This document shows, in pieces, positions 11,365 to 53,432 of a stretch of 64,000 nucleotides of DNA. The stretch is from Candidatus Kaiserbacteria bacterium (GTDB taxonomy: Bacteria > Patescibacteriota > Minisyncoccia > Phycocordibacterales > Phycocordibacteraceae): the NCBI GenBank assembly GCA_016182485.1, contig JACPGH010000002.1, positions 26,608 through 90,607 on the forward strand, given 5' to 3'. Position 1 is the stretch's first letter; the number at the start of each line of letters is the position of its first letter. A model generated the notes under the pieces. The model saw nothing but the letters and a program-made list of their open reading frames with translations. It had not been told where the DNA came from and did not search any database. A program made the translations under genes and the position numbers.

Positions 11365-11440
11365 TGTGAAGGTCTGACCTTCACATCGAAAAAGTCTGAT
11401 AAAATATACGTATATTGTATGTGAAGGTCTGACCTTCACA
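11365..11440. repeat. paired 21-bp perfect palindromes TGTGAAGGTCTGACCTTCACA x2 (locus 1, 34-nt AT-rich spacer)
   Basis: Exact 10-1-10 palindromes sit at 11365..11385 and 11420..11440, between convergent clpB and a minus-strand small gene. Confidence 0.85.
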
Positions 11441-11533
11441 GGTACGAGCTGGCGCAATCGCCAGCTTTCGGCGTGTAAAAACAACGCGGCGCGTGGAGGG
11501 AACCTCCACACGCCGCTGGGGCGCTCGCCATGC

Positions 11534-11848
11534 TCACTTCTTCGGGAGCTTGCACTCCGTCTCACCCGACGGGGAGACCGTGCAGGTGACAGGGCCCGAG
11601 TTCTTCTGCAAGTAGTACGCGATGATGCCGATCTGCGTCGACGTAGCTTCCTTGCCGGCGCAATCGAGTTTCAGCACCGCGTCGTCTGGAGAACGCGCCT
11701 CGGTTGACTTCATGGTACATGGGATGTCTCGCGCAGCCATGCTTGAGTGCCGTGGGACAGCATAGGCCACCGCTTGAATAGCGGCGGCCACAGCGATGAG
11801 CAGCGCGATGAGAAGTTGTGCTGGGAACGGTAGAATGAGGCGCTTCAT
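11534..11848 (-). CDS. small secreted protein (signal peptide, Cys-containing)
   Basis: Start MKRLILPFPAQLLIALLIAVAAA is preceded by AGGAGG. The longer ORF in the track (to 12313) has an Arg/Pro-rich N-terminal extension that looks spurious. Confidence 0.6.
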   Translation of the reverse strand: MKRLILPFPAQLLIALLIAVAAAIQAVAYAVPRHSSMAARDIPCTMKSTEARSPDDAVLKLDCAGKEATSTQIGIIAYYLQKNSGPVTCTVSPSGETECKLPKK

Positions 11849-12456
11849 GACCGCACCTCCTGCTCGTGGCGCTCGATCATGATCGAAGGGCAGACCTTCT
11901 GCTTCTGTGCGGCGAACCATTCGCCGAGGATTTCGAAGAAGGTCGGCGCTGTCGGGACATGCGCCTCCGCCTTCTCTCGCTCCGCGCGCCAGCGCCGAAG
12001 GCGTCGCTGGTACTGCCATTCGTTCACGCGGTTCCCAGCGGCCTTGATGCCCCAGATGAACAGGACGACTCCGACGATGCCGCCCGCGGTGAGCGAATAG
12101 GCGGAACCGCCGAAGAGGGTCATTGGCAGGACGGTGAAGACCGCTATCAGGAGGCCGTACAGGATCACGTGAAGCGTGAGAATGAGTGGTGCGTAGACGA
12201 GCGTGACCCTCAGGAAGAAGCAGAGATTGGTGTGCTTGATCCATGAGGCAGTGTCTCTGTCCCGGAAGGCATCGTAGATGCCAAGGGACCATAGGAACCA
12301 TCGAACGTACCATTGCCGGTCGTCGAGAGTCATTAGGTATCCTTTCTCCGCCTCAATGCGGCATTCGACAAGGAACTGCTTGAGCCGCTGCTGGCGAGTC
12401 CCAACGACGCGCCAATTCCGGGCCGAAGTATGCTCCACCGGAAGGCTTGTTGTCAA
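11845..12456 (-). CDS. hypothetical membrane protein
   Basis: It has multiple TM helices. Its stop overlaps the start of the downstream small secreted-protein gene (ATGA), so the pair looks like an operon. Confidence 0.55.
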   Translation of the reverse strand: MTTSLPVEHTSARNWRVVGTRQQRLKQFLVECRIEAEKGYLMTLDDRQWYVRWFLWSLGIYDAFRDRDTASWIKHTNLCFFLRVTLVYAPLILTLHVILYGLLIAVFTVLPMTLFGGSAYSLTAGGIVGVVLFIWGIKAAGNRVNEWQYQRRLRRWRAEREKAEAHVPTAPTFFEILGEWFAAQKQKVCPSIMIERHEQEVRS

Positions 12457-12527
12457 GGTTCGCCAGCGGTCGCTCAGGACATAAGCGAGAGATTGCTTCC
12501 TGGGTTCTTGTTTGTTATATTTTTAAT

Positions 12528-12698
12528 ATGTCCCAAGACCGAATCATACGGATGCAGTCCTCCGCCTCGAAACACGTATTGATAACCCGCAAGAACAAAA
12601 AAGCGGTGCAGCGTAAGATCGAACTTACGAAATACGATCCTGTCGCTCGGAAGCGCGTGGTGTACAAAGAAATCAAGTGGAAGGGTAAGGGAGGATAA
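12528..12698 (+). CDS. rpmG: 50S ribosomal protein L33
   Basis: MSQDRIIRMQSSASKHVLITRKNKKAVQRKIELTKYDPVARKRVVYKEIK matches the L33 pattern (TKNKK...KFDPV...H.IYKEIK). Confidence 0.8.
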   Translation: MSQDRIIRMQSSASKHVLITRKNKKAVQRKIELTKYDPVARKRVVYKEIKWKGKGG

Positions 12699-12700
12699 AT

Positions 12701-12728
12701 CGAAAGCCCCGCGTCCGCGGGGCTTTCG
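12701..12728 (+). terminator. hairpin terminator after rpmG
   Basis: CGAAAGCCCCGCG-TCC-CGCGGGGCTTTCG followed by ATTTGG. Confidence 0.5.
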
Positions 12729-12925: not shown

Positions 12926-14053
12926 ATGCGTTCTCGCACGTTCCTTCTCTTTGTCGCGTTCATGGCCGTTCTGTTCGTTCCTCAGCTCGCAGAAGCCCGC
13001 ATCCCGTTCTTCGGCCCGATTCTTCCAAGCGAGGCCTTTAACCCCGCATTGTGCCCGACCGGACTCGGCTGGGGAGCGGTCATAGTCGTCATCAACAATG
13101 TCATCGAGTTCGCGCTCACGATTATCCTCGTCTTCCTCGCGCCGATCATGATCGCCTACTCCGGATTCCTCTACGTCGTGAATCCCTTCAAGCCAGATGG
13201 GTTGGCGAAGGCGAGGTCACTTCTCCTCAGTACTGTCGTCGGCATAGTCGTGGCGCTTGGCGCCTGGATGATCGTGAGCGCGCTCATGGCGGTGCTCTAT
13301 CATCCGGATCCGAACAAGGGATTTACGGAAAATTGGGCCAGCATCATTAATTCCGGCGGGCAGGGGCTATGCCTTTCGCAACAAGGGGCGGCTCCTTCTT
13401 CTGGAGGGGGGTCAGTCACGGTGATAGGAGTCGAGCCGATTACGCAGCCAACGCCCGTTACGCCGCCCACTTCTGGCGGCCCTTCTATGAGTCAGACAGC
13501 TATACAAACCGCTGCGAACAAGGCCCAGCCCTATCGGAATCAAGTCTGCGCGGCGGCTTCCGTTAATGGCATTTCTGGCCAATGCAACCAACTGCTCGGT
13601 ATTCTCGGGGTCGAATCAAATGGAAATCCAAATGCCCGTCCTCCGGGCGGCGGAGAAGGCGAGATAGGTCTCATGCAGCTTAAGCCGAGCACCGCGGCGA
13701 TGAACGGCGTCGCTGCATGCGTTGGCTCATCGGACCTTTCTCCGTCGGCGGAGTGCGCAGCCAGATTGCAAGACCCAACGGCGAACATTAATGCCGGTGT
13801 TCGATATTATGCGGGGCTGTATCGCGAATTCCGCGACTCTAGAAATGCAACAGCCGCATATAACGGCGGGAATGGTCGCGGCAGTAATGCGGACGGCACT
13901 CGACAAGCATTTGCGCCAAGCAGGGATTGTATCCCTCCGACATATCCCTCGGGCATGTATGCGTGGGAATGCCCCATTAATCCGGGCGGCTTTGCGGGCA
14001 CGCAAAGTTACGTCGCCAACGTCGCATCTGTTGCCGCCAGAGTAGCAAATTAG
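12926..14053 (+). CDS. membrane-bound lytic transglycosylase (SLT domain) with N-terminal two-TM module
   Basis: The C-terminal part (GILGVESNGNP...GEIGLMQLKPSTA...NINAGVRYYAGLY...AAYNGG) is an SLT domain. The N-terminus has two TM helices. The MRSRTFLL start is preferred over the upstream GTG. Confidence 0.7.
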   Translation: MRSRTFLLFVAFMAVLFVPQLAEARIPFFGPILPSEAFNPALCPTGLGWGAVIVVINNVIEFALTIILVFLAPIMIAYSGFLYVVNPFKPDGLAKARSLLLSTVVGIVVALGAWMIVSALMAVLYHPDPNKGFTENWASIINSGGQGLCLSQQGAAPSSGGGSVTVIGVEPITQPTPVTPPTSGGPSMSQTAIQTAANKAQPYRNQVCAAASVNGISGQCNQLLGILGVESNGNPNARPPGGGEGEIGLMQLKPSTAAMNGVAACVGSSDLSPSAECAARLQDPTANINAGVRYYAGLYREFRDSRNATAAYNGGNGRGSNADGTRQAFAPSRDCIPPTYPSGMYAWECPINPGGFAGTQSYVANVASVAARVAN

Positions 14054-14070
14054 GACATCGGATGTCCTAA
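14050..14070. terminator. 21-bp perfect palindrome TTAGGACATCGGATGTCCTAA containing the stop codons of both convergent genes
   Basis: A 10-1-10 palindrome. The TAG of the SLT gene and the TAA of miaA (minus strand) both lie inside it. Confidence 0.6.
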
Positions 14071-14970
14071 TTTCCGCAGCCAAGCCTTCTGCCGGCGCGC
14101 GTATTGCCAGAGCTTCGCTGAAAGGATAGGGAATAATTTTCTCTCAAGCCGCGCTGCGTCCTCTGTAGCCTTGGCGGAGGAGGAGAGGAACTCGCCGACT
14201 ATTTTGTATTCAAGCCCGAGTTCGTTCAGGCGCGCATCGCCCGCGGCTTCACGCACGCGCCGCACTTCCTCAATGAGGCCGCGCTCGAAGGCGCGCGCGA
14301 GACGGGCGCCGATGCGCGCGCGTAGCTCTTCAGCCGGCGGGTCAATCACGATCCATTCCGGAGCAAATGTTAGGACATCCGATGTCCTAGTTTCAGAATG
14401 CATGTCGGGACATCGGATGTCCCTGGCCCGGGGCGGGACGGTGCCGTTGGCAGCGATTATCTCGAGCGCGCGGATGAGCCGGCGGCGGTTCTGCGGATCG
14501 AGTTCCGCCGCGCGGCGCGGGTCCTGTTCTCTAATTCGCGCGAATAGTTCTTCAGTCGGGAGTAATTCCAGTTTCTCGCGCAGTTCCGGATTCGCATCGA
14601 CTCCTGCGGGCAAGCCATGCAGCAAAGCATCAAAATAGAAATGCGTGCCGCCGACAAGAATGGGCAGTTTGCCTCGCGCTACAATTTCGGGGATTAATCT
14701 ACACGCATCGTTGACGAAATCTCCGGCGGAATACGTTTCGGCCACGTTCCGTATATCGATGAGATGATGCGGCACGCCGCGACGCTCGTCTGCCGGCATT
14801 TTCTCCGTGCCGATATCGAGTCCGCGATAGACCTGCCGCGAATCGACCGAGATTATCTCGCCGTCCCGCGCGAGCGCTTCTTCGACCGCTCGGGCGGATT
14901 TCCCCGAAGCGGTCGGGCCGGCGATACAAATTATATTGACCGGATTATGCCCGGTAGGACTAAATGGCAT
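14050..14970 (-). CDS. miaA: tRNA dimethylallyltransferase
   Basis: Shows the P-loop GPTASGKS, DSRQVYRGLDIGT and GGTHFYFDALL. Confidence 0.9.
   Translation of the reverse strand: MPFSPTGHNPVNIICIAGPTASGKSARAVEEALARDGEIISVDSRQVYRGLDIGTEKMPADERRGVPHHLIDIRNVAETYSAGDFVNDACRLIPEIVARGKLPILVGGTHFYFDALLHGLPAGVDANPELREKLELLPTEELFARIREQDPRRAAELDPQNRRRLIRALEIIAANGTVPPRARDIRCPDMHSETRTSDVLTFAPEWIVIDPPAEELRARIGARLARAFERGLIEEVRRVREAAGDARLNELGLEYKIVGEFLSSSAKATEDAARLERKLFPILSAKLWQYARRQKAWLRKLGHPMS
14370..14423. repeat. pair of GGACATCcGATGTCC palindromes embedded in-frame inside miaA
   Basis: TTAGGACATCCGATGTCCTAG at 14370..14390 and GGGACATCGGATGTCCC at 14407..14423. They encode RDIRCPDMHSETRTSDVL, which lies in a variable loop of MiaA. 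Confidence 0.6.
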
Positions 14971-17958: not shown

Positions 17959-18531
17959 CTAAAAAGTCTCTAGAGCAAGCCTCGCGCCGACGACAAACGA
18001 AAACTCCTTTTTGGCTTCGGCTTCTTCTTTAAGTTGTGAAAGCAGCGACGAGCGCAGGGGTTCGTTAGTACGAAAACACTTATCTATGGCCTTTTGTATG
18101 CGATTTAGCAGCTCCTGTCGGCGCTCTAAAAGTTCGGTCCGATTGAGCTCAATGTCGATAATTGTTAGTTCACCCCTCTCACTACCACCCCTCTGGAAGA
18201 TATATGCCCCTGAAGCCACTACAGAATCATTCGGATCTTCCGAGTAAGGGTTAATATACGGCATTCTATCCTCGTACTTGGTCCCTTTGGCGTTATTGCA
18301 TCGCTGGCAGACGAAACCGAGATTATTCCACTCGAACTCGAGTTCAGGATATCTACCCTTAGGCTGGATGTGCTCGACATCGCCAAATGATGTATCTCTG
18401 ACGTAGGCTTCGCAGTACATACATTTACCACTGGAGGCATCGATTAAAGCCGCCTTGTTATCTGCGTGCTTATAATCGCCAGCCGTAAGTCGGTCAGGTC
18501 TTGGACAGGTCGGGCGATGCAGTCTGATCAT
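17959..18531 (-). CDS. ptuB: HNH endonuclease, Septu PtuB-like
   Basis: Length 190 aa with CMYCE...DVEHIQPKG...FVCQRCNNAKG (His-Me finger). Its start overlaps the stop of the upstream ATPase gene (ATGA). Confidence 0.65.
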   Translation of the reverse strand: MIRLHRPTCPRPDRLTAGDYKHADNKAALIDASSGKCMYCEAYVRDTSFGDVEHIQPKGRYPELEFEWNNLGFVCQRCNNAKGTKYEDRMPYINPYSEDPNDSVVASGAYIFQRGGSERGELTIIDIELNRTELLERRQELLNRIQKAIDKCFRTNEPLRSSLLSQLKEEAEAKKEFSFVVGARLALETF

Positions 18532-19754
18532 TGCGCTTTATCTTCAGCCAGACGATAAATCGCTTCCGGCATCAATCTTTCGAGGCCTATCTCTTTCAAT
18601 TTGTCGCGCATCCGCAGGAGATCTTCTTTGGTAAGGTCCTTCTTCTCAGTATATTCTTTAGTGATTCGTGCCAGATCCTCTTCTGCCCAGATTGGCATCG
18701 TAAAGCTGACACCGAGCACTTCATCCAAAACCTCTGTTGCGGTTCTTGGTTTATCAACCAAGTCAAGCACTTCAGAGTAAACTTTTCCCTCCTTATACCT
18801 GAGTGCTACCACGGTAGAATCACGCACTGATGTCACAATAAGGGGACTGTGGGTACTTATGACAAATGATGCCTTCGGGAAGGCTTTCAAAAGATCTGAG
18901 AGTATCCTCCTCTGCATAGTCGGGTGTAGATGATTTTCCACCTCGTCAATTACGACAACGAAATTATCACGCTTATCGGTTGAGAACATATGTATTTGCC
19001 AAGCCAAGTCAATCATCGTGCTGATTCCACCTGATGCCGCATCAAGAAGGAACTCTCCACTGTCGCAGCAAAACACTATTTCTTGATCCCGGATCTCAAG
19101 TTTTCTAAAACCAAGACTTTTTGGCAGAACTACCTTAAGTACATTTTCAAAATCACGAAAATGCTGTAATAAATCCTCTCGTCCCGGCATAACTGGGTTC
19201 CCATAACCAAAGATATTCCAAGAAACCAGAATCTCTTTCATATGGTAGCTCGATGGAGCACCGCCGCCACCTGAGTAACGATTGCGTACGCTCTCTGATA
19301 TCCTCAAAAAAGCGTCCTCCTTACTAAAGGTTTGGCGCAGCGGCAGGCTGCCCAGCTGCTGATAATTGAATGTCGACCTGTGCGAGGGGATAAAGAATCC
19401 CTCCACATTTTGCTGCCCCCTTATAGTCAGAGTGTATTGTGCTTGCCCAACCAATGGTGCGTGAAGCACAGCTTTTACATCATCGTCATAGATAATTTCG
19501 CCAACATCGTCGCTTGATTTATCCAAGAGGCCCGAAAACCATTCGAGTGTGGAAGTAAGCAGATTCTTTCTAGGAACAGCAAGGCTCATAGAAGACCAAC
19601 CGAAGTGAGAAGCCAAAATGCTCTTGAGAATTGTGGTTTTCCCACTACCGTTGGCACCGGTAATGATAGTCATCCGCCGATGAAAAGGGATTTCAATATT
19701 CCCAAACTGTTGCCACCCTGTGATTTTCAGTTTCTTAAACATATGTTCAATCAT
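18528..19754 (-). CDS. ptuA: AAA_21/ABC-type ATPase, Septu PtuA-like
   Basis: Walker A is GANGSGKTT, the signature-like motif is ASGGIS, Walker B is VVVIDEVENHLHP, and the H-loop is STHSP. Paired with the HNH gene in a lower-GC region. Confidence 0.65.
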   Translation of the reverse strand: MIEHMFKKLKITGWQQFGNIEIPFHRRMTIITGANGSGKTTILKSILASHFGWSSMSLAVPRKNLLTSTLEWFSGLLDKSSDDVGEIIYDDDVKAVLHAPLVGQAQYTLTIRGQQNVEGFFIPSHRSTFNYQQLGSLPLRQTFSKEDAFLRISESVRNRYSGGGGAPSSYHMKEILVSWNIFGYGNPVMPGREDLLQHFRDFENVLKVVLPKSLGFRKLEIRDQEIVFCCDSGEFLLDAASGGISTMIDLAWQIHMFSTDKRDNFVVVIDEVENHLHPTMQRRILSDLLKAFPKASFVISTHSPLIVTSVRDSTVVALRYKEGKVYSEVLDLVDKPRTATEVLDEVLGVSFTMPIWAEEDLARITKEYTEKKDLTKEDLLRMRDKLKEIGLERLMPEAIYRLAEDKAQ

Positions 19755-19820
19755 TGTAACGCTTTTTAAGAATCCAGTACGCCTTATTTTCTATCGGTTG
19801 GAGTTTGTTTGTCATACAGA

Positions 19821-21401
19821 TTACGACACCCATTCCTCTCTTATTCTCCAATCAGTCCTTGGAAACATACTGAGATTAGAAGCCACCATTGTGCTACGCG
19901 GGTCGTCGAACGAGATCGTGACTGAAAACGATCCGTCAGCGTTACGTTTCGGTCGTGCAGAGGAGGCCTTGCTGTACATTTGATACTTTAATCGTAATTC
20001 GACACCATCGTCTTTCTTTTTGAACTTGTTCATTAGAACATCTATCTCATCAAGTGCAGCTCGAATTGTCTCTGGTTTGTTATCACCTAAGTAGTAGGTA
20101 CCATCATAAAGTGCTGCAGAACCACTTTGATTTTCGATTTTTTCAATCTCCAAGTACTTATTTTTTGACCAAAATGAACGTGAATATTTTTCTCCGTTAA
20201 ATAGTGGCGTATTACTTTTGATAACAAACTCGATTGCTCTATGGCCAGTTGCGTAGATGTAAAACAGACAGCCCTGAACTTCTTTGTCGAGTGTTGCTTG
20301 TTGCGCCTTGTGTTGAAGAGCAGAACTATTTCTCCTGAAGAGTATAGGAAACCAATAACCGATCCGGTTATATCTAGTTCCTCCTTGATCAAACGGTTTT
20401 CCATCAACTTTCCATTCGGTAGCAGCTTCATACGCAGCTAAATCACCGACATTCATTACCACGCCTTCTTCCTCCACCATAATATTTAGTCCCATTGTCC
20501 CCTCGTATTTCTTTCGCTCGAACATCGCATAATTTCCATTCGGGAAATGCATTTTGAATCCAGTAAGACCCTCATCCGGAGTTGACAGGAACTCAAGGAC
20601 TTCGAGGTCACGCATTATTCTGTATTTAGAGCCACTAGCTAGTCCCTTTCGTACTTGCTTATAAGTTATGAAGAACGCTGAATAAAAAGCGAAGCACCGA
20701 GAAAGCATATCTGACAACTTCTCAAGACTGATTGATCTGGCACCAATATCCGCACCTTCAATGATACGGAACTCTTCATCAGAGATCGTGTAGTCGGAAT
20801 GATAAAAGGCATTTCTTACTTCATTGTTGAAGAATCCGTCAATGATCTCCCCGATTCGTTCCTCGCCCGACGCAGCCGCCAATTCTTTTATGTAGCTGAT
20901 CTTTTGTCTTGGATATGGCAAATGTCGTCTTGGGAAAAGGCCTTCGGTTTTCCGTTCGACTGTAACCAAATGATCAAAAGGATACATTTTGTATGGTTGG
21001 TCCATACAACATCGCAGTAAGTTTGTTATGACTTCATATGGAGCTGACATTTCGGTTGAATGGCAGTAGAGAAATAGCGCCATTCTTAGCGCCCTCTTCT
21101 CTTGTCCTTTTCCCATTTTCCGCATCATTTTGCTGAAGTCCATTGCGGTATCTTCTGCTTCTACGAACGCATCCCAATGTCCGTCGGTGATTCCTTCTAC
21201 ACGAAGGATTGTGTAGAGATACGTAAAGCCATTTGTATCGCCAGCACGACTGAACAAATGATTGAAATATTCGAGATATTCATCTGTATATTTAGAGAGT
21301 AGGGTCGTGTCTCGTGCGCGCAACCATTTGCGAATCTTCTTTGTGGGCCAAGTCGCGATGTCTCTCATTTCCATAGCTAAGCCATTATTTTCTGCAAGCA
21401 C
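19821..21401 (-). CDS. hypothetical protein in the defence island (N-terminal helical region with HEPN-like R-x4-H motif VRNAFYH; C-terminal ~300 aa of unknown fold)
   Basis: A long ORF of lower GC, co-oriented with and tightly packed between hsdS and ptuA. I recognise no domain beyond the Rx4H motif. Confidence 0.7.
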   Translation of the reverse strand: MLAENNGLAMEMRDIATWPTKKIRKWLRARDTTLLSKYTDEYLEYFNHLFSRAGDTNGFTYLYTILRVEGITDGHWDAFVEAEDTAMDFSKMMRKMGKGQEKRALRMALFLYCHSTEMSAPYEVITNLLRCCMDQPYKMYPFDHLVTVERKTEGLFPRRHLPYPRQKISYIKELAAASGEERIGEIIDGFFNNEVRNAFYHSDYTISDEEFRIIEGADIGARSISLEKLSDMLSRCFAFYSAFFITYKQVRKGLASGSKYRIMRDLEVLEFLSTPDEGLTGFKMHFPNGNYAMFERKKYEGTMGLNIMVEEEGVVMNVGDLAAYEAATEWKVDGKPFDQGGTRYNRIGYWFPILFRRNSSALQHKAQQATLDKEVQGCLFYIYATGHRAIEFVIKSNTPLFNGEKYSRSFWSKNKYLEIEKIENQSGSAALYDGTYYLGDNKPETIRAALDEIDVLMNKFKKKDDGVELRLKYQMYSKASSARPKRNADGSFSVTISFDDPRSTMVASNLSMFPRTDWRIREEWVS

Positions 21402-22943
21402 TGAATGTTTTCTCGCATTTCTTGGACTTTCTCCACTATCCGTTTCTGCTCAGCGAGAGGAGGGAGCGGCATCGGAATTGGGTAAACACTTATTCCTGAA
21501 ATGACCGGTTGCGCGGAGCCTCGATGGGAGGATCTTAGATTTAAATAATTCAGAACGAGCAAAAAGAACTCCTTATCTAAAAAGTTTTCTGGATAACTAA
21601 CTATAAATGCATTGTCAGTTACCCACGCGTCAGATTCTGTAATATAAGCAGTGCCGCAAAGAGCGCCCACACGCCCTATAACAATCGTTCCCCTTGCTGC
21701 GTTAGAGGATGAGTGACGACCTGCTATGCCATTCCCTCCATAGACGAGATATGGTCCTTCAATGGCCTCGCTAACTTTCAGGGAATCGCCTGAGGATATG
21801 TTCATAACATCTCCAAGGCGAACCCACCTCCACGAAGCTGGGATATTAAATGGCGTGTCTGATGCACTAACAGGAGGAAGAAGTTTTGTTGTTTTGCGTT
21901 TCCGACCGGTGCTTAAGGTCTTTAAGCGCTCTTCTCGAATCTTAAGTAGTAGCTCCTCAGCTGTACCTTCCTTGGCATTTTGCAGGACCAGCTTGCCAGA
22001 CACAGCAAGTGTGAGAACTGCGTTCTCGAGTTCTTTGATATCCGATGGTGATTTTACCAACTCAAATAGATACTGAAGAGGCAGTTTACTGTTGCCATCC
22101 CTGAGATCTCTCATCGCACTTCGTGTAAGACGTGTACGTACTGCGTCTCGTTCTTTCTTTTTCGCCTCTAGCTCGTCAAGGCTGCGCATTACGTCCTTGA
22201 TCTTATCCACCATTCGATCCTGCTCACCAGAAGGCGGTAGAGGTATCTCAATCAGAGGCAATGTGTCGCCATTAAGCGTACGCCCCTTAATGGCATTCGA
22301 CGTTCTTCCGGTTAAATCTAGCGCCGGTAATATATGAAATAAATAGTCTCGTAGAGTTTGGTCAGGACTTATGAACGCTGCAATCGCCTCGTTATGACAC
22401 GCGTCCATCTCTAAAATAGACATCTTACCGATGGTCAGCTTAAAACTAAAAAGCAGGGACCCCAGCGGGGCTTTATAACCACGGAATACTTCCTCCAAAG
22501 CAAGTTCGTTAATGGATTCTTTCGTGGAGTGAATTGTGCTGCCATTTATCAAGTCGGAAATGGAAACCCAAGGAGTGTCTGCGGCTGACCAATACTTGGA
22601 TTCAACGCGCGGCGGTGTTTTCCCCACGCGAAACTCGACGATGTCACCAAGTCGAACCCATTTCCAAGAAACCGGGACCTCAAATGGTACCTCTGTCTGA
22701 TCGACAGGTAATAAAGATTCTTTTCTGCGTCTTCGACCATTCTCGGCAACACCCCGCTGCAATCGTTCACTCTGAATCTTCGCATAGAGCTCTTCTCCCG
22801 TGCCTTCCTTCGGGTCGTGCGGAACTAGCCGTCCAGAGACGGCAAGGGTGAGGACTGCTTTACGAAGACGCTCTATGCCGTCAGGCAACTCTAGAAAGTC
22901 ATCTAGGTTTGCGACGATTGTACGTACATCATTTAGTTCCATT
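21377..22943 (-). CDS. hsdS: type I restriction-modification system specificity subunit
   Basis: Two target-recognition domains are separated by conserved coiled regions (LAVSGRLV...; LAVSGKLV...). The MELNDVRTIV start is preferred. It overlaps hsdM. Confidence 0.85.
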
Positions 22944-24374
22944 GTGCGAGAGGGCGCCCTCCAAAAGCGCTCTGATTTTATCCAGTGCTTTCTTGGTTTC
23001 CTCCTGCTTGGTGCGATAGGTAGCAAGAAGCTCTTCAGGGGATTCGACCAATTCCTTCGGGGCACGAGGATTTTTAATATCAAGGTTGTAGTTCCTTGCC
23101 CGGATCTCGTCGATGGATACTTTCCACGCCTGTCCGTTTTCTTCGCGATTGTTCCACCACACCTTTTCCGGCGCGAACTCATCAACGCTCATAGGATTCG
23201 TCATCGAGTAAGCCTTCTGTCCTTTCGGCAGCGGATGCTCGTAGTACCAGATCTCTTTGGTCGGCTCGCCCTTGGTAAAGAAGAGGAGATTCGTGGCTAT
23301 ACTGGTGTAAGGAGCGAAAACGCTCTTGGGTAAGCGTACGATGGTATGCAAATTACACTCCTCGAGGAGCATCTTCTTGAGTGCGGTTTTCATTCCTTCG
23401 CCAAAGAGAGTGCCGTCGGGTAGAACAACGCCGCAGCGGCCGTACTTCTTGAGCAATCGTACGATAAGCACGAGAAAGAGATCTGCTGTCTCTCGCGTTT
23501 GAAACTCGGTCGGGAAGTTCTTCTCGACGCCCGGCTCCTCTGTGCCGCCGAAGGGAGGATTGGTAACTATGCAGTCGATGCGGTCAGCGTCTGTATAGTC
23601 GCGCAGCGGCTTCTCGAGCATATTGCCGCGGCGCATTGTGACTGGCTCCTCAATGCCGTGGAGCATCATATTCGTGATGAGGAGCATATACGGGAGCGGC
23701 TTCTTCTCCACGCCGTGAATGCTTTGCTGGATTTTCGCTTCGTCTTTGACGGTCTTTACTTGTTTACGGAGGTGCTCAAGCGAGTTTACGAGGAATCCGC
23801 CGGTGCCGGCTGCCGGGTCAAACACCGATTCGCCAACCTTCGGGTCAATCATCTCAACAATGAATTGGGTAACGGCGCGAGGCGTATATAGCTCGCCGTA
23901 GTTCTTTGCGCTCTGAAGGCTCTTAAGAAGACGCTCATAGACCTCGTTGAAAGCGTGCCGATCCTTTGAGGTATTGAAGTCGATCTCGTTCACCTTGTTG
24001 ATGACTTGCTTCAGTAGCGTTCCCTTGCGCATAAAGTTGTTCACGTCTTGGAACGCCATACGCGTAAGCTCTGTACGCTGATTACCATTAGTCGGTAGTG
24101 CACGCAGAGCAGGAATTAGGTCTCCGTTTACGAAAGCAACCAACTGCTCACCGGTCAGCCCATCAAGCGGAGCGGCCCACGTGCGCCACTGATACTCTTT
24201 CGGCAGTGTTGGTGTATATTTTTCCTTCCGTATCTCCAGAGCCCTATCTTCGTCGTCAAGGATCTTCAAATAGATGAGCCAAACGAGTTGCGAGAGGCGT
24301 TGCGCATCTCCGTCTACGCCGATGTCTTGGCGCATTATGTCCTGTATGGCTTTGATGGTAGCGGGGGTGAACAT
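22929..24374 (-). CDS. hsdM: type I restriction-modification system DNA methyltransferase subunit
   Basis: Carries the NPPFGG motif, an AdoMet-binding DPAAGTGGFL motif and an N-terminal HsdM domain. Confidence 0.9.
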   Translation of the reverse strand: MFTPATIKAIQDIMRQDIGVDGDAQRLSQLVWLIYLKILDDEDRALEIRKEKYTPTLPKEYQWRTWAAPLDGLTGEQLVAFVNGDLIPALRALPTNGNQRTELTRMAFQDVNNFMRKGTLLKQVINKVNEIDFNTSKDRHAFNEVYERLLKSLQSAKNYGELYTPRAVTQFIVEMIDPKVGESVFDPAAGTGGFLVNSLEHLRKQVKTVKDEAKIQQSIHGVEKKPLPYMLLITNMMLHGIEEPVTMRRGNMLEKPLRDYTDADRIDCIVTNPPFGGTEEPGVEKNFPTEFQTRETADLFLVLIVRLLKKYGRCGVVLPDGTLFGEGMKTALKKMLLEECNLHTIVRLPKSVFAPYTSIATNLLFFTKGEPTKEIWYYEHPLPKGQKAYSMTNPMSVDEFAPEKVWWNNREENGQAWKVSIDEIRARNYNLDIKNPRAPKELVESPEELLATYRTKQEETKKALDKIRALLEGALSHNGTK

Positions 24375-27226: not shown

Positions 27227-27988
27227 ATGAACACACAACCGAAAAAAATTTCTAACGGGGTGAAAAAGATACTTCTTGCATCCGCATTACTCGCAGCTCT
27301 CGTCCCTGTCGCCGCATTCGCTTCATCTATAACGCTTGCACCCGCGTCGGTTGCGACAACTGAAGGCAAGTCCTTTAGCGTCGCGGTCGCCGTAGATCCA
27401 GCTTCGGGGAAGGCGTACACGGCGCGCGCGAATCTCTCCTTCGACCCGTCGGCAGTAACTCTCGTCGGCTTTTCCTTCGCGCCGAAATGGATGCAGCTGC
27501 CTCAGGAAGGTTATGACCTCGAAGATAATGCCGGAGGCAAGCTCGCGAAGACGGGCGGCTATCCCGGAGGCATTACGACAGCCACAGTCCTTGGCACGGC
27601 TACGTTCCGCGCCAAGACCACTGGCGTTACGACCATCTCGGCAACGGGGGATTCGCTCATCCTAGATGCCAGCAATCAAAACGCGGTTTCCGGAGCGCAA
27701 GGCTCGGTGCGGGTTTCTATAGCGGCCGTGCCGGTCGCGCCGCAGCCCGCAGCGTCTACAGAAACCGCGCCCATTGTCTCGACTGCCGAAGCGGTGCCCG
27801 CCACCACGACGCTCGATCTGGCAGAAGCAGTCACCGAAGCTGGCACCGCAGTAGCGCTCTCGCCGCTCGATTCCTTTCTCACTCTCGGCACGGGCAGCGC
27901 CGCAGTCGCCTCGCTCGTAACGCTTATCGTCCTTCTCGTCGTTGGCGCTGGCATCTGGCTCTGGCGCCGCGAACGGGCTCGGTATTAA
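27227..27988 (+). CDS. cohesin-domain protein with signal peptide and C-terminal TM anchor
   Basis: Has a signal peptide, a cohesin-like beta-sandwich (SITLAPASVATTEGKSFSVAVAVD...YTARANLSFDPSAVTLVGFSF), an Ala/Thr/Pro linker and a TM helix with an RRERARY tail. Confidence 0.65.
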   Translation: MNTQPKKISNGVKKILLASALLAALVPVAAFASSITLAPASVATTEGKSFSVAVAVDPASGKAYTARANLSFDPSAVTLVGFSFAPKWMQLPQEGYDLEDNAGGKLAKTGGYPGGITTATVLGTATFRAKTTGVTTISATGDSLILDASNQNAVSGAQGSVRVSIAAVPVAPQPAASTETAPIVSTAEAVPATTTLDLAEAVTEAGTAVALSPLDSFLTLGTGSAAVASLVTLIVLLVVGAGIWLWRRERARY

Positions 27989-28007: not shown

Positions 28008-28071
28008 TGTGAAGGTCAGACCTTCACAAGCTGTGAATCTGCAATGTCTTCTGTGAAGGTCAGACCTTCAC
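28008..28071. repeat. paired 21-bp palindromes TGTGAAGGTCAGACCTTCAC(A/G) x2 with 23-nt spacer (locus 2)
   Basis: Palindromes at 28008..28028 and 28052..28071. The spacer is AGCTGTGAATCTGCAATGTCTTC. Confidence 0.85.
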
Positions 28072-28163
28072 GACAAGGGGCCGTGTATCTTGACAAGCTT
28101 TATTAATTAGTATATATACCAGACCAGAGTGCGATCGTACAACCTCAATGCAAGGAGGCCATC

Positions 28164-28661
28164 ATGCTGCCATGGATCCAGCAGTTGAACGAGCGGATGA
28201 AGCAGGTCGACACGAGGCCTCTCCTCGAGCAGCTGGAGCTTGGAGCCAAGCTCCAGCCTCATGAGCACATCGTCGGAAAGCTTTCCGATGAGATGCTCCG
28301 GCTCTTCGGCGTCGTCCTCGCGCAGGGGATGGAGATGATTAGCCACATGGGGCGCTGCGCGGATCTGTTCGACCGGCTCCCGGAGATGGAGTCGGAACTC
28401 GAGATCGAGGCGAGGATAAGGCCCCTCATGTCGGAGGGCGCGGAGCTCTCCCGACGGCTACAGCTCACCGAGGACCTGTTCTGGGCGTCGATCATATTCG
28501 AGTTCCCCGAGGCCGCGAACAGGAATCGCGGGATTCGGGCGGGCGGGCGGGTCGTCGTCTGGGAGACCGAAGCCGACCCGCGGCGGATGCGCCAGCAGAT
28601 GGCCGCAGGCGAGCTTGCGGCCATCATAAGCAAGCTGGAGCAAATCCACCTCCGCAACTAG
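28164..28661 (+). CDS. hypothetical protein (165 aa) bracketed by identical 65-bp repeats
   Basis: The start is preceded by AGGAGG. I recognise no domain. Confidence 0.65.
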   Translation: MLPWIQQLNERMKQVDTRPLLEQLELGAKLQPHEHIVGKLSDEMLRLFGVVLAQGMEMISHMGRCADLFDRLPEMESELEIEARIRPLMSEGAELSRRLQLTEDLFWASIIFEFPEAANRNRGIRAGGRVVVWETEADPRRMRQQMAAGELAAIISKLEQIHLRN

Positions 28662-41865: not shown

Positions 41866-41981
41866 GCGGCTTCTCGAGAAGATGGCCCCGGCTCCGACGT
41901 TGCGTCGGAGCCGGGGTTCCTGTTTTTCGCGGCAGCGCCAACCAGGTTGGCGCTGCCGCGTGCTATCATTTCCGTAATCCC

Positions 41982-42480: not shown

Positions 42481-43011
42481 ATGGCCCTCGACGTACAGTT
42501 GTTCTATCTTTTTAATGGCCTCGCCGGCCGGTCGGCTCTGCTTGACCAGATAATCGTCTTTTTCGGGTCGTATCTCCCGTATCTGGTCATCGCAGTATTT
42601 TTTATCCAACTGCTGATTTCCGGTTATTCGTACAGGGAGAAATCGCGGATGCTTCTCGTCGCCTTTGCTTCTGCCGCCATCGCGCGTTGGGGGATGGTGG
42701 ACCTTATCCGCAATTGGTATCACCGGCCGCGGCCGTTCTCGGCGCTGCCTGTGCGCCAATTGCTCGAGAACAGCGAATGGTCTTTCCCGTCCGGACATGC
42801 CGCTTTCTTTTTCGCGCTTGCGACGGCCGTGTTCTTCTATGACAGGCGGTGGGGGACCGGGCTTTTTACCGCGGCCATTTTCATTTCTTTCGCCCGAGTC
42901 GCCGCCGGCGTCCACTATCCCTCCGATATATTGGGCGGAGCCGTTCTAGGCATCCTCGCCGCCTGGGCGGTACGTTTAATTGCACTAAGGATATTAAGTA
43001 AAGAGGTTTAA
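42481..43011 (+). CDS. PAP2-family phosphatase (undecaprenyl-diphosphatase-like)
   Basis: Contains the PSGHA and YPSD...GG motifs. Confidence 0.8.
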   Translation: MALDVQLFYLFNGLAGRSALLDQIIVFFGSYLPYLVIAVFFIQLLISGYSYREKSRMLLVAFASAAIARWGMVDLIRNWYHRPRPFSALPVRQLLENSEWSFPSGHAAFFFALATAVFFYDRRWGTGLFTAAIFISFARVAAGVHYPSDILGGAVLGILAAWAVRLIALRILSKEV

Positions 43012-43021
43012 CCTCTTTACT
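42995..43021. terminator. palindrome AGTAAAGAGGTTTAACCTCTTTACT containing the PAP2 stop codon (second copy of the 34970 element)
   Basis: The same arms as at 34970. It encodes the C-terminal SKEV residues and the stop. Confidence 0.5.
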
Positions 43022-43122
43022 TATCGCGAGGAGCGATTATTCGAACCCATTGACTTTTGCTTGTCAATATGCTAGTATAAAAAAACCTAGATAGCTAGCC
43101 GCTATTTTGGTCAATCTAAGCA

Positions 43123-50876: not shown

Positions 50877-50883
50877 AATTAAA

Positions 50884-50918
50884 AGGCCGCCCGAGAGGCC
50901 GGGCGGCCTCTCGGGCGG
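50884..50918. terminator. GC-rich palindrome GCCGCCCGAGAGGCC-GGG-CGGCCTCTCGGGCGGC between convergent genes
   Basis: A 15-bp stem. It shares its core with the hairpin at 59021. Confidence 0.55.
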
Positions 50919-50919
50919 C

Positions 50920-51219
50920 CTAGTTCAAGGAGGCCATGTACCGCAATCGCTCGGCGGTTGCATCGGCCGCCTTGGAAGCAGCCTCGTCCTTCACGACGAT
51001 GACCAGCCGGCCGCGCGCTTCCTGGATCTGTTCATAGACCCGGAGCGCGTCCTCGATGACCTCTCCAGCTGGCCGACCCGTGAGTCGGCAGAGCTTCTCG
51101 GTCCGGTTCTCGATCCGGTTCCGCCGCCGCTTTTCTTCTCGCCGCTGGAGGTGTGCCTCGATCAAAAAAATTGCCCCTGTAGCGGCTGCGATGCAGGCTG
51201 TAGACAGGACCCAACTCAT
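50920..51219 (-). CDS. hypothetical protein with N-terminal TM helix
   Basis: AAGGAG lies upstream of the ATG. Length 99 aa. Confidence 0.5.
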   Translation of the reverse strand: MSWVLSTACIAAATGAIFLIEAHLQRREEKRRRNRIENRTEKLCRLTGRPAGEVIEDALRVYEQIQEARGRLVIVVKDEAASKAADATAERLRYMASLN

Positions 51220-51349
51220 GTTGTCTCCTTCCTGGTCGCGATTCGTGCAGTCTATGTTTAAGGTAGCTTCTATACAGAAAGCGGTCAAATCATTACCGGC
51301 GACTGGCACATTCACCTTTTTTTAAGGGGAAGGGGAGTACGGTCAGGGC

Positions 51350-52192
51350 ATGTCTATCGTGCAAAGGGGACAGGTACGAGGGCTTATGATAGGGGCGCTC
51401 GTCGGCGTCGTACTCGGAGCCGGCGTGCCGCTCCTCTTGAGCCCTATAGCCGCGGCCCAGACTGTCCCCACGGGCGCATTACAGGCGGCTGATGCCGAGT
51501 TTGTTTCTATGGTGGAAACTGCCTCGAGCGCGGTGGTGAGTATTACCATCTCGGCACCTTCTGAGCCAAGATCGGCGAATCCTTTCTGTGACGACCCGAT
51601 CTTTCGGCAGTTTTTCGGCGATGAATGCCTTGCGCCCGGTACCGGTTTCCCTACGGTAGAGACGGTCGGCGCGGGAACCGGATTTTTCGTCTCTTCTGAT
51701 GGCGTCATCTTAACTAACTATCATTTAGTGAATGTGCCTGGCGCGACATACACGGTGATGCTGAACGATGGCCGGCAATTCACGGCCGAGGTTCTGCGCA
51801 CTGATCCGGCGCAGGATGTGGCCGTGCTAAATATCGAGGCAAGCGGCGTGCCGTTCCTCGCCCTCGGCGATTCCGATTCGATCCAGATCGGGCAAATGGC
51901 CGTCGCGATCGGGAACGCCTTCGGCCAGTTCTCGAATACGGTCTCGCGAGGCATCGTATCCGGCATCGGGCGCTCGGTGGTGGCGAGCGCCCGGGGCGGC
52001 GGGGCTGAAGAACTCTCGGAGGTTATCCAAACCGATGCGGCGATCAATCCGGGCAATTCGGGCGGCCCGCTCATCAACAGCGCGGGGCAGGTCATCGGCA
52101 TCAATACGGCGACGATAATCGGGGCGCAGAGTATCGGCTTCGCTATTCCTATCAACGCCGCGAAGACGGACATCGATCTCTTTTTAGATTGA
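51350..52192 (+). CDS. trypsin-like serine protease (HtrA/DegP S1C family, no PDZ domain)
   Basis: His region TNYHLV, Asp region DVAVL and Ser motif GNSGGPL. It has a signal/TM N-terminus. Confidence 0.85.
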   Translation: MSIVQRGQVRGLMIGALVGVVLGAGVPLLLSPIAAAQTVPTGALQAADAEFVSMVETASSAVVSITISAPSEPRSANPFCDDPIFRQFFGDECLAPGTGFPTVETVGAGTGFFVSSDGVILTNYHLVNVPGATYTVMLNDGRQFTAEVLRTDPAQDVAVLNIEASGVPFLALGDSDSIQIGQMAVAIGNAFGQFSNTVSRGIVSGIGRSVVASARGGGAEELSEVIQTDAAINPGNSGGPLINSAGQVIGINTATIIGAQSIGFAIPINAAKTDIDLFLD

Positions 52193-52269
52193 GCAGAATA
52201 GAGTGCGGCCCTCGCAATGTGAAGGGCTCCGCGATTGGTCGCGGAGCCCTGGCCCGTCTCTCGGGCGAA

Positions 52270-53253
52270 CTATCTTCCCGTGCTGTCATACATGCGGATC
52301 TTATTTTCCACAGTTTTCCGGCAGAAGCCGGAAATTCTCGCCGCCGCCGCTACGTTCCCGCGGACCCTATCGACGAGCGCCATTATGTACTTCTTTTCCA
52401 TCTCCTTGAAGGTGGGAAAGGAATTCTCGCTCTCGCCGAAGGCAGTCGTATCGATGCTGCTGTCCCGGCCCGAAAAGCAGATATGCTCGGCGCTGATCTG
52501 CTCCTCCTTCCCGGCCATGAACACGGCCCGCGAGACCGTGTTCTTGAGCTCGCGGACGTTGCCCGGCCAGGTGTGGGCGGACAGCAGGGACAAAGCTCCA
52601 TCCGAAAACCCCTTTGGCGAGGCATTCTCCTGCCAGAGGAAGTGCAATGCCAGAGGGACGGCGTCTGCCTTGCGTTCCCGCAGGGGCGGGAGCGTGAAGG
52701 TAACGACGTCCAGCCGATAGTAGAGATCCTCCCGGAACTCGCGCCGGTGCACCAGCGACTCCAGGTCGGCGTTGGTAGCGGCGATGATCCGGGTGTTGAC
52801 GGGAATCTCCTGCGCACCGCCGACGGAACGGAAGCTCTTTTTGTCGAGCAGTCGAAGGAACTTCGCCTGCATGTGAAGCGACATGTTCGCAATCTCGTTC
52901 AGGAAGAGCGTACCTCCCTCGGCTTGCCGGACCAGACCCAGCCTATCCCTAACCGCGCCCGTGAAGGCACCCTTCACGTTACCGAAGAGCTCCGACTCCG
53001 CTAGCTCTTCAGGCAGTCCCCCGCAGTCCACTAGTACGAACGGTCGCCGTTCTCCCGAATGGGCGTGAATCAGCTCGGCTAGGTGATCCTTGCCGGTTCC
53101 CGTCTCTCCACGGAGGAGGACGGAGTGTCCGGACACGGCGGCCCTTTCTGCGAACTCCCGCATCACAGCCGCCTCTTTGCTGACGCCCACCAGAGCGGCA
53201 GCGGGCTGTAAGGTGGCAAACGCCTGCTTCAGCTCGTTTAGGACCAGGCTCAT
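52270..53253 (-). CDS. sigma-54-dependent transcriptional activator, AAA+ and HTH domains only (PspF-like, no sensory domain)
   Basis: Walker A is GETGTGKD. It has the GAFTGA loop, an arginine finger and a C-terminal Fis-type HTH. Confidence 0.85.
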   Translation of the reverse strand: MSLVLNELKQAFATLQPAAALVGVSKEAAVMREFAERAAVSGHSVLLRGETGTGKDHLAELIHAHSGERRPFVLVDCGGLPEELAESELFGNVKGAFTGAVRDRLGLVRQAEGGTLFLNEIANMSLHMQAKFLRLLDKKSFRSVGGAQEIPVNTRIIAATNADLESLVHRREFREDLYYRLDVVTFTLPPLRERKADAVPLALHFLWQENASPKGFSDGALSLLSAHTWPGNVRELKNTVSRAVFMAGKEEQISAEHICFSGRDSSIDTTAFGESENSFPTFKEMEKKYIMALVDRVRGNVAAAARISGFCRKTVENKIRMYDSTGR

Positions 53254-53366
53254 GATCCGCCCCCTTTCGGAATGGTGTCAATGTATAGATCTGTCTCGGC
53301 TCAGATTACGTCAAATTATCTTAAAAGCAACCTCCCGCTCGCCTCGACGAGGCACAGAGTAGCCGC

Positions 53367-53432
53367 TGTGAAGGTCAGACCTTCACAAGCTATGATATCT
53401 CAAAGTCATACTGTGAAGGTCAGACCTTCACA
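53367..53432. repeat. paired 21-bp palindromes TGTGAAGGTCAGACCTTCACA x2 (locus 5) in the divergent promoter region next to the sigma-54 activator
   Basis: Palindromes at 53367..53387 and 53412..53432. The spacer is AGCTATGATATCTCAAAGTCATAC. Confidence 0.85.

Follow-up and report, generated by a model that had tools for sequence, protein, structure and literature searches.

The closest described relatives of the elements reported here are the REP sequences of E. coli and Pseudomonas, together with the REPIN doublets and RAYT transposases associated with them (PMC3116915, PMC5581495, PMC3479197). In those systems short palindromes are over-represented in intergenic DNA, as ours are within the window. 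Further points in common are doublets that form a single long hairpin, an HUH/Y1 gene that lies between the same repeats in inverted orientation, and different palindromes in different RAYT lineages. The arrangement that defines the family is a single-copy RAYT gene flanked by REPINs (PMC5581495), and a GTAG or CGTC tetranucleotide at one REP end marks two large superfamilies (PMC3733652). The elements described below occur in a window of 64,000 nucleotides from a Candidatus Kaiserbacteria genome, and the host, one of the ultra-small Patescibacteria (CPR), is itself a difference from the known systems: the literature that we searched contains no paper linking REP or RAYT with this phylum. We regard the elements as an unusual form of a recognised type, apparently undescribed in Patescibacteria.

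The window contains ten matches to the palindrome TGTGAAGGTCWGACCTTCACA, nine exact and one with a single mismatch, starting at 11365, 11420, 28008, 28052, 28778, 28822, 31855, 31899, 53367 and 53412; the chance expectation from 100 dinucleotide-preserving shuffles of the window is 0. The unit has a 10-1-10 architecture with outer TGTGA/TCACA half-sites spaced N11, and its flanks show only YY and RR. Its 10-nt half-site is never found in the window outside the palindromes. Unlike REPs of the two superfamilies, this perfect palindrome has no GTAG or CGTC head, starting instead with TGTG and ending with CACA. The ten copies form five intergenic doublets of 65-76 bp, and four of these lie downstream of plus-strand genes, 16-116 nt past the stop codons. 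The preliminary description had reported ten perfect copies, always paired and never within a gene. The number and the pairing stand, as does the position outside all credible ORFs of the window, but the perfection fails at 28052-28072, where the final base is G (TGTGAAGGTCAGACCTTCACG).

The first doublet (11365-11440, plus strand) starts 16 nt after the clpB stop and consists of two palindromes with centre T around a spacer lacking AGCT, which at 34 nt and AT-rich is as previously described. It lies at the left edge of a 1.18-kb segment between clpB and rpmG that is missing in relatives; in three close relatives (L113-L115, ClpB identity 89-91%) rpmG follows 27 nt after clpB, with no such palindrome there. 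The second doublet (28008-28072, plus strand) is situated 19 nt past the stop of ORF 27227-27988 and 91 nt ahead of ORF 28164, and joins two palindromes with centre A, the latter being the mismatched copy, through the spacer AGCTGTGAATCTGCAATGTCTTC. The same spacer, identical at 23/23 positions, recurs in the third doublet (28778-28842, plus strand; centres T and A), which follows ORF 28164-28661 at 116 nt from its stop and is separated by 84 nt from the end of a convergent M50-like ORF. The ORF between these two doublets (28164-28661) is a member of a genuine, though sparsely populated, protein family. The fourth doublet (31855-31919, plus strand; both centres A, spacer AGCTGAGAATTTTCGGCGCTTTC) is found 26 nt past the stop of an ABC-2 permease gene (31052-31828). 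The fifth (53367-53432, plus strand; both centres A, 24-nt spacer AGCTATGATATCTCAAAGTCATAC) occupies the divergent intergenic region between a sigma-54 activator gene (52270-53253, minus strand) and the gene at 53522-54436, 113 nt from the start of the former and 89 nt ahead of the latter. Both palindromes share their centre base in four of the five doublets, which leaves the inverted orientation typical of canonical REPINs unmarked there. A single related palindrome, TGTGGATGTCGGACATCCACA (58942-58962, strand not assigned), keeps the outer TGTG/CACA and the inner GTC-N-GAC and differs from TGTGAAGGTCWGACCTTCACA by compensatory changes at two positions per arm.

As single-stranded DNA, one unit gives a folding energy of -7.8 kcal/mol, and the doublets are predicted to fold as one long hairpin with dG of -20 to -28 kcal/mol and z of -4.8 to -9.4. 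The values are -23 kcal/mol (z -7.8) for the first doublet, -20 (z -4.8) for the second, -26.6 (z -8.9) for the third, in which the two palindromes form a perfect 21-bp P1:P2 stem, and -21.8 (z -5.6) for the fourth. Variants of the palindrome retain Watson-Crick complementarity of the arms: compensatory changes affect five of the ten arm pairs, two-sided changes number 15 cells where shuffles give 2.7 (0/500), and there are no one-sided changes of the G-T type.

When the ORFs near the motif are clustered, the top cluster (15 loci) comprises a protein of ~235 aa. It matches the Pfam family Y1_Tnp (PF01797) with E down to 1.6e-10, over the gathering score in three of four tested proteins. Its best NCBIfam match is NF047646, the REP-associated tyrosine transposase, with 48.9 bits where the IS200 model gives 13; this is under the equivalog cut-off of 80, a further difference from the described systems. 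Invariant residues in the alignment are H84-F85-H86, which make up the HUH motif, and Y144. A profile search against PDB sequences gives no match; the AlphaFold2 model of one member, P0110 (pLDDT 89.7), has its top Foldseek match in the PDB with 4ER8 (E 8e-6, TM 0.67), a complex of the E. coli RAYT with a REP hairpin; the TnpA proteins of IS608 and ISDra2 come next. The predicted fold is closest to that of a known RAYT. The Patescibacteria protein, with its C-terminal helical extension, is longer than the chain in 4ER8, which has 165 residues. Judging by family matches, conserved motifs and modelled structure, we assign the protein to the RAYT branch of the HUH/Y1 enzymes and not to the IS200 TnpA proteins. 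In 10 of 12 related loci the exact palindrome is present on both sides of the gene, 20-45 nt ahead of its start and 5-15 nt past its stop, and the other two are divergent homologues flanked by different palindromes. Two RAYT clades only 26-28% identical to each other, and different classes, carry exactly the same 21 bp, which differs from what is described for REP/REPIN-RAYT systems. In four MAGs that contain several motif loci, one RAYT locus apiece was recovered from the parts of the genomes covered.

The window itself has no RAYT homologue by tblastn or hmmsearch --max. The partner gene that the preliminary description proposed to look for is found, flanked by the palindrome, in related genomes and on contigs of the same samples. 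P0110 (MBI2410188, Kaiserbacteria) is encoded on contigs of SRR12113385, SRR12113424 and SRR12113430 (GC 0.57-0.59), runs that contain the genes of the window too, and its gene is flanked on both sides by mutually inverted doublets of the window type, P-AGCT-N20-P. The link to the window is made by shared runs, GC, accession range, element architecture and organism name (MBI2409507 and MBI2409555 from the window and MBI2410188 are all named Candidatus Kaiserbacteria bacterium), not by one contig. Since a RAYT gene from the same runs is flanked by such doublets, we interpret the five loci as REPIN-like and not as operators or terminators. They are very probably non-autonomous mobile elements that depend on a RAYT-family transposase whose gene lies at another place in this Candidatus Kaiserbacteria genome; with similar assurance, each 21-bp palindrome can be regarded as a REP-type hairpin and each 65-76-bp pair as a REPIN-like doublet. 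The earlier suggestion of a REP/BIME-like mobile element is thereby sustained, both by the RAYT-type genes between exact palindromes in relatives and by the window-type doublets at the RAYT gene in the same samples.

Spacers offer a view of how the doublets were propagated. Their length is 23 nt at 28008, 28778 and 31855, as first reported, and 24 nt at 53367, where 23 had been given; the centre-to-centre distance of 44-45 bp is constant at these four loci. AGCT stands at the start of all four spacers, in agreement with the preliminary description, and is their sole conserved part. Enterobacterial BIMEs likewise consist of REP pairs with short linkers of fixed length classes, and these linkers hold sites for host factors such as IHF; nothing comparable to such sites was found in the window spacers. 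The spacer of the fifth doublet is homologous to that of the second and third (19/24, 0/300 shuffles) and matches that of the doublet upstream of the RAYT gene at 16/24 positions, and the spacer of the fourth resembles the others only weakly (15/23, p about 0.1). The homologous spacers at 28008, 28778, 53367 and the RAYT-upstream doublet point to copying of whole doublets. For the spacers at 11365, 31855 and the RAYT-downstream doublet the comparison demonstrates no homology, and some doublets may therefore stem from two separate insertions.

Among public genomes the exact palindrome is confined to Patescibacteria, with 32 loci in GTDB genomes and 70 in metagenomes, and it is absent from IMG/VR. 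It recurs in many studies and across Patescibacteria classes; most other genomes with the motif have only 1-6 exact copies. All ten copies in the 64-kb window are intergenic, and four more stand around the RAYT gene, but in other Patescibacteria the 21-bp unit also lies in frame inside GroEL, UDG, Dus, LeuRS, DHFR, TopA, KsgA, GAPDH and other genes. Because single units occur in frame within genes, the element is not strictly extragenic, which is a further difference from the described REP/REPIN-RAYT systems. One clean empty site is available: ksgA of L032 differs from that of L003, L062 and L073 by exactly 21 nt, and the comparison reveals no further gap and no target duplication. A single unit can thus appear as an exact 21-nt insertion without target duplication. 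Such in-frame insertion recalls the Rickettsia palindromic elements, which occur in frame in unrelated housekeeping genes and are translated (PMC10969869). Those elements, however, measure about 100-150 bp, lack a known transposase and occur in Rickettsia only, whereas the unit considered here has 21 bp (7 codons), is tied to a RAYT-like gene and is unrelated in sequence; we reject membership on the grounds of length and sequence. Insertion sequences of the IS200/IS605 group (IS608, ISDra2) share with our system related folds, insertion without target duplication and, presumably, HUH/Y1 chemistry and recognition of hairpins in single-stranded DNA. An IS200/IS605 element is nevertheless rejected: with the IS200 NCBIfam model the score of 13 bits falls far short of the cut-off of 55, the repeats far outnumber the gene, and identical perfect palindromes stand on both sides of it in place of distinct left and right ends.

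Could the palindromes instead serve the host? As operators, they would bind a dimeric factor (CRP/FNR-like or other) cooperatively at two sites about 44 bp apart and define a small regulon with the sigma-54 activator locus as one of its members. The preliminary description had entertained such a CRP-like arrangement, and the perfect dyad with TGTGA/TCACA ends, the constant centre distance and the pair in a divergent promoter region all agree with it. Yet the half-sites are N11 apart where CRP has N6, four of the five pairs lie downstream of genes, and no sigma-54 promoter match was found near 53367. The palindrome is missing from the orthologous clpB locus in close relatives, sits in frame in housekeeping genes elsewhere in the phylum and flanks RAYT genes, and the compensatory arm changes are easier to reconcile with a hairpin than with a fixed protein site. 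We reject a CRP/FNR-type operator and consider operators of any kind very unlikely. Somewhat less improbable, although still unlikely, is a role at the RNA level, with host-selected terminators or 3'-end stabilising hairpins spread by duplication and not by a transposase. The hairpins are stable, four pairs follow gene stops on the plus strand, and an influence on mRNA turnover is reported for the REPs of E. coli (PMC3479197). The preliminary description had leaned towards a repeat element or a terminator. The terminator reading is not supported, because none of the ten copies adjoins a T-run on either side, and an intrinsic terminator is rejected; downstream of the doublet after clpB there is a separate terminator-like hairpin that does have a T-run. 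Moreover, the variants lack the one-sided changes of the G-U type that RNA stems usually tolerate, in-frame copies inside genes cannot act as terminators, and the association with RAYT genes is left unexplained. An effect on RNA may exist as a secondary, co-opted one.

Two readings that invoke neither regulation nor a RAYT are less probable again. The palindrome begins with TG, ends with CA and has a single central base like a junction spacer, so that it resembles two abutted 10-bp terminal inverted repeats (TGTGAAGGTC...GACCTTCACA) at a circle junction and might represent the termini or footprints of a DDE-type insertion sequence or MITE. This is highly improbable: at the clean empty site the difference is exactly 21 nt and no target-site duplication accompanies it, the only recurrent motif-bounded gene encodes an HUH/Y1 enzyme and not a DDE transposase, and no DDE transposase stands beside the motif in about 110 loci. 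For an artefact of assembly or library (an adaptor or a collapsed repeat), raised earlier as a duplication that would dispose of the repeats, we find no support. The pair 53367/53412 is reproduced base for base in six independent Logan assemblies from different runs (L033-L038), the motif turns up in many studies yet only in Patescibacteria, and in-frame copies lie within otherwise continuous genes, which leaves such an artefact a negligible chance.

What could be the mechanism by which REPIN-like doublets spread in these genomes? By analogy with E. coli TnpA-REP (PMC3479197) and IS608, the enzyme would bind the hairpin extruded in single-stranded DNA, for example in the lagging-strand template, and cleave beside the hairpin foot through a 5'-phosphotyrosine link before the ends are rejoined. 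Cutting and rejoining of this kind would allow single units and whole doublets to be copied or moved, and the conserved AGCT beside the first palindrome of a doublet may belong to the cleavage or recognition site. The perfection of nine of the ten palindromes beside diverged spacers could alternatively be caused by a host function.

That the motif is phylum-wide and not strictly extragenic lay beyond the reach of the window sequence alone. We regard the doublets of the window as most probably neutral or selfish passengers of 3' untranslated and intergenic DNA; a secondary function, for instance in stabilising mRNA 3' ends or as recombination hot spots, is possible.

The 21-bp palindrome consists of two 10-nt arms around a single central base. 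Searched with up to three mismatches allowed, TGTGAAGGTCWGACCTTCACA matches ten times in the window and never in 100 dinucleotide-preserving shuffles, and a scan of the window finds no occurrence of the 10-nt half-site outside these ten palindromes. The copies form five doublets, named here by their start (11365/11420, 28008/28052, 28778/28822, 31855/31899 and 53367/53412), with spacers of 34, 23, 23, 23 and 24 nt, respectively. The count and the pairing given in the preliminary description therefore stand, with two corrections of detail: nine of the ten copies are exact, the one at 28052 having a terminal G, and the spacer at 53367 measures 24 rather than 23 nt. The spacers of the last four doublets (28008, 28778, 31855 and 53367) open with AGCT, and spacer sequences diverge between doublets whose palindromes remain perfect. 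All ten window copies are intergenic, as had been described; copies within genes occur in other Patescibacteria. Doublet 11365 lies 3' of clpB, 28008 is 3' of ORF 27227-27988, 28778 is 3' of ORF 28164-28661, 31855 is 3' of the ABC-2 permease gene, and 53367 falls in the gap between gene 53522 and the sigma-54 activator gene, which is on the minus strand. The window belongs to a Patescibacteria (CPR) genome of ~57% G+C and shares synteny with contigs of other Kaiserbacteria and Patescibacteria; Rfam models detect three tRNAs in it and nothing else. Among the ORFs adjoining doublets, on which Pfam was run, 27227-27988, 28164-28661 and 11534-12313 are without a match. ORF 28164-28661 (165 aa) is bracketed by doublets 28008 and 28778, which have the same orientation and the same spacer, and its product is a member of a genuine but thinly populated protein family with 23 representatives at E <= 0.001.

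In 185,579 species, each represented by a single genome, the exact palindrome was located 32 times, and every one of these loci belongs to a Patescibacteria MAG (Saccharibacteria, Paceibacterota, Kaiserbacteria, Minisyncoccia and Nomurabacteria); 241 million metagenome records yielded 70 loci, many of them from groundwater. The IMG/VR viral contigs scanned contained no match and hence give no indication that phages carry the motif. As single-stranded DNA, each doublet is predicted to fold mostly into one long hairpin in which the two palindromes pair with each other and the spacer forms the loop (dG -20 to -28 kcal/mol, z -4.8 to -9.4). Among 24 distinct variants collected from ~0.8 Mb of loci, two-sided changes affect 5 of the 10 stem pairs and occupy 15 cells, compared with 2.7 in shuffles, none of 500 shuffles reaching 15. 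One-sided changes of the G-T type are absent from these 24 variants, a pattern more in keeping with Watson-Crick pairing of DNA than with an RNA stem. Breaks are frequent at the innermost pair, where a 3-nt loop would lead one to expect them. The window also holds a single palindrome at 58942-58962, TGTGGATGTCGGACATCCACA, which retains the outer and inner bases of the motif with two compensatory changes per arm and is one of the compensatory forms in the variant set.

What could be the partner of such an element? When ORFs within 2.5 kb of the motif were clustered, the largest cluster, drawn from 15 loci, proved to be a protein of ~235 aa that matches Pfam Y1_Tnp (PF01797), with three of four tested members above the gathering score. 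Of the NCBIfam models, NF047646, 'REP-associated tyrosine transposase' (RAYT), scores highest at 48.9 bits, which is below the 80-bit equivalog cut-off; the IS200 model gives only 13 bits. Neither the HUH motif (NHFHLL) nor the tyrosine varies. The family comprises at least 6,417 relatives and is annotated in Patescibacteria MAGs just as 'transposase'. For P0110, a member from Candidatus Kaiserbacteria, the AlphaFold2 model (pLDDT 89.7) most resembles, among PDB folds, that of 4ER8, in which the E. coli RAYT is in complex with a REP hairpin, followed by the TnpA proteins of IS608 and ISDra2; searching the PDB by sequence, whether from a single RAYT or from a profile, returned no match, and 4ER8 emerged from the fold search alone. 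A partner gene of the RAYT type, as envisaged in the preliminary description, is found in related loci: in 10 of the 12 examined, an exact palindrome stands 20-45 nt 5' of the start and 5-15 nt 3' of the stop of the RAYT-like gene. Two divergent homologues (L054 and L088) are bounded by other palindromes, AAATGTGGACTT..AAGTCCACATTT and AAAATTCCTGAGGC..GCCTCAGGAATTTT. Within the RAYT genes of L080, L084, L087 and L010 there is a sequence that differs from the gene's own palindrome by 1-2 mismatches and that in the first three encodes REG(P/Q/L)TFT.

Not one base of the palindrome differs between classes, or between two RAYT clades with only 26-28% identity to each other. Among 111 non-redundant occurrences that have full flanks, T stands at the centre in 45, A in 43, C in 16 and G in 7, and symmetry continues outward only as YY...RR. 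The centre base tracks lineage, being A or T beside the 'MRVEPY' RAYT clade and in genomes of higher G+C content, the window included, and C or G beside the 'MNRKH' clade and in low-G+C genomes.

Neither tblastn nor hmmsearch --max on all six-frame ORFs detects a RAYT homologue in the 64-kb window. ClpB and the sigma-54 activator of the window are 100% identical to MBI2409507 and MBI2409555 (Candidatus Kaiserbacteria bacterium, 94,591-bp contig), and P0110 is MBI2410188, 'transposase [Candidatus Kaiserbacteria bacterium]'; the three fall in one accession run of ~680, which is compatible with a single assembly. P0110 is encoded on Logan contigs (G+C 0.57-0.59) of SRR12113385, SRR12113424, SRR12113430 and SRR12113383, the first three of which also hold the activator gene of the window. 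The P0110 gene is flanked by doublets, with P denoting the palindrome and its centre base in brackets: P(A)-AGCTGTCGTAATCCACAGCTATCC-P(T) on the 5' side and, 9 nt past the stop, P(T)-TTCACATTTAGGGAACGCTTAGCT-P(A) on the 3' side. These are mutually inverted, have 24-nt spacers with AGCT beside the outer palindrome, and share the architecture of the window doublets, which was seen in no other genome. From the runs in common, the organism name, the G+C content, the accession range and the doublet architecture, we infer that the P0110 gene and the window belong to one genome.

Spacer comparisons bear on how the doublets spread. Doublets 28008 and 28778 have one and the same spacer, and the spacers of 53367 (19/24) and of the doublet upstream of the RAYT gene (16/24) are homologous to it, which indicates that whole doublets are copied. 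For the spacers of 31855, 11365 and the RAYT-downstream doublet, homology to the others is not demonstrable, and some doublets may have formed from separate insertions. Between clpB and rpmG, the window has a 1.18-kb lineage-specific segment (11349-12527) that starts with doublet 11365 and also holds two minus-strand ORFs; in three relatives with 89-91% ClpB identity, rpmG follows clpB at 27 nt, and in the closest of them the motif is absent from 21 kb. The ksgA gene of one Patescibacteria locus (L032) carries the palindrome. Aligned over this site with the orthologues from L003, L062 and L073, it shows a single gap of exactly 21 nt, or 7 codons, without target duplication. Enzymes of the IS200/IS605 type likewise insert without duplicating their target.

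The ksgA copy is one of many within genes of other Patescibacteria, where ORFs of 150 codons or more enclose, well away from their ends, 27 of 113 non-redundant occurrences. Host genes confirmed by Pfam encode GroEL, UDG, Dus, LeuRS, DHFR, topoisomerase I, KsgA, GAPDH, a class-V aminotransferase and an M50 protease; those for topoisomerase I, the protease and the aminotransferase each contain two adjacent units. In frame, the unit translates as CEG(Q/L/R/P)TFT or VKV(R/G)PS, the two frames able to stay open. GroEL of locus L001 has 6-7 residues more than three orthologues. Comparison of the class-V aminotransferase of the window with its palindrome-bearing counterpart (L019) gives no clean evidence of insertion, because the loop is equally long in both. 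In six pheT genes whose products are 42-70% identical to one another (L046, L052, L070, L088, L095 and L105), an exact palindrome at the same site encodes VKV(G/R)PSQ. This site resembles what we take to be the native V-K-V-G-P-S motif of PheT, and these copies were for that reason left out of the insertion count; they may represent insertion, the origin of the repeat, or conversion.

A cooperative operator, with half-sites resembling those of CRP at N11 rather than N6 spacing, was among the readings offered in the preliminary description. Binding sites for a transcription factor do not fit the positions 3' of genes, the lack of a conserved doublet at the clpB locus of relatives, the copies inside genes elsewhere in Patescibacteria or the association with RAYT genes; moreover, the sigma-54 promoter consensus is neither enriched nor present near doublet 53367. 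As for the terminator role also floated there, a T-run follows none of the ten copies and a separate terminator-like hairpin stands after the clpB doublet, so that intrinsic termination is not supported. A co-opted effect of the doublets on mRNA stability is possible.

The palindromes might alternatively be the ends of a DDE transposon; this is excluded by the missing target duplication at ksgA and by a partner gene of another kind. The artefact of assembly named in the preliminary description is likewise excluded, since six Logan assemblies of different runs carry the 53367 pair base for base. Two further candidates were rejected: a DNA uptake sequence, as the motif has low copy numbers and no half-site is found on its own, and a CRISPR-like mini-array, as two loci have identical spacers and each locus has two repeats only.

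Other palindromes are found in the window besides this family. The miaA gene (14050-14970, minus strand) has an in-frame insertion with a doublet of a second family, GGACATC-N-GATGTCC, made up of GGGACATCCGATGTCCC and TAGGACATCGGATGTCCTA; palindromes of this family lie at 14359-14426 and 14047-14073, a third copy overlapping the miaA stop codon. The same site holds a third kind of doublet, TGTGAAAGTCAGACTTACACA-GCCGC-TGTGTAAGTCTGACTTTCACA, in two relatives (L113; L114, 10516-10562) and is empty in the closest relative. Two copies of a perfect palindrome, AAGTAAAGAGGTT-W-AACCTCTTTACTT, at 34967-34993 and 42995-43023, each cover a gene-end stop codon. Long perfect palindromes with arms of 12-19 nt occur inside long ORFs at 32378-32415, 34525-34549, 34651-34691, 41886-41960, 50884-50921 and 4113-4151, where we estimate a chance expectation of ~0.03 per 64 kb; one of them, 38 bp long, is at the 3' end of the small basic ORF 32214-32419. 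They may be further REP-like families. The block 18000-24000 has a G+C content of 0.43-0.50, against ~0.58 elsewhere, and may be acquired DNA. The sigma-54 activator (52270-53253) is domain-poor and, as previously described, sensor-less, having neither a receiver nor a sensor domain. A homologue search gave no close match, the next best (51% identity) lying outside CPR and named homologues further down the list belonging to phyla outside Patescibacteria, which suggests horizontal acquisition.

REP/RAYT systems, in which REPs and REPINs are short mobile hairpins and hairpin doublets, are known chiefly from work on Proteobacteria, and their repeats are regarded as extragenic and specific to a lineage. 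Their core features are a palindromic repeat, its occurrence in doublets and a repeat-flanked RAYT gene (PMC5581495), and all three are found in the Patescibacteria system. The palindrome and its RAYT are thus very probably of the known REP/REPIN-RAYT kind, in a variant that is novel within the searched literature; in that search, which left many subscription papers outside, we found nothing linking REPs or RAYTs with Patescibacteria or giving the motif in this context. The variant differs from classical REPs in host phylum, in its perfect 10-1-10 palindrome without the GTAG or CGTC head of the known superfamilies (PMC3733652), in the constancy of the repeat across classes and divergent RAYT clades, and in inserting also into genes, which recalls the palindromic elements of Rickettsia (PMC10969869) rather than classical REPs. 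Compared with known RAYTs, the Patescibacteria protein is longer and scores under the curated equivalog threshold.

We lean towards the view that a RAYT family found throughout Patescibacteria has the perfect 21-bp palindrome as its smallest mobile unit. This unit would depart from classical REPs in its base identity across classes and across RAYT clades less than 30% identical, its insertion as exactly 21 nt with no duplication of the target, and its in-frame tolerance in essential genes, and in the Kaiserbacteria lineage of the window the unit would have become a 65-bp doublet and then multiplied. If this is true, REPs are not inherently extragenic and, in streamlined genomes, repeatedly give rise to insertions in proteins.

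The same REP/RAYT logic appears in the ultra-small, streamlined Patescibacteria, with one 21-bp hairpin common to several classes. For annotation, it accounts for the intergenic palindromes that recur in CPR genomes and for some of their odd 7-residue insertions, and guards against misreading such palindromes as operators or terminators. To our knowledge, the mechanism by which RAYTs copy REPs is still unsettled, and a 21-nt hairpin with a 236-aa enzyme offers a minimal substrate for testing it. A 7-codon unit small enough to persist inside essential genes also provides a tractable case of a selfish element editing protein sequences.
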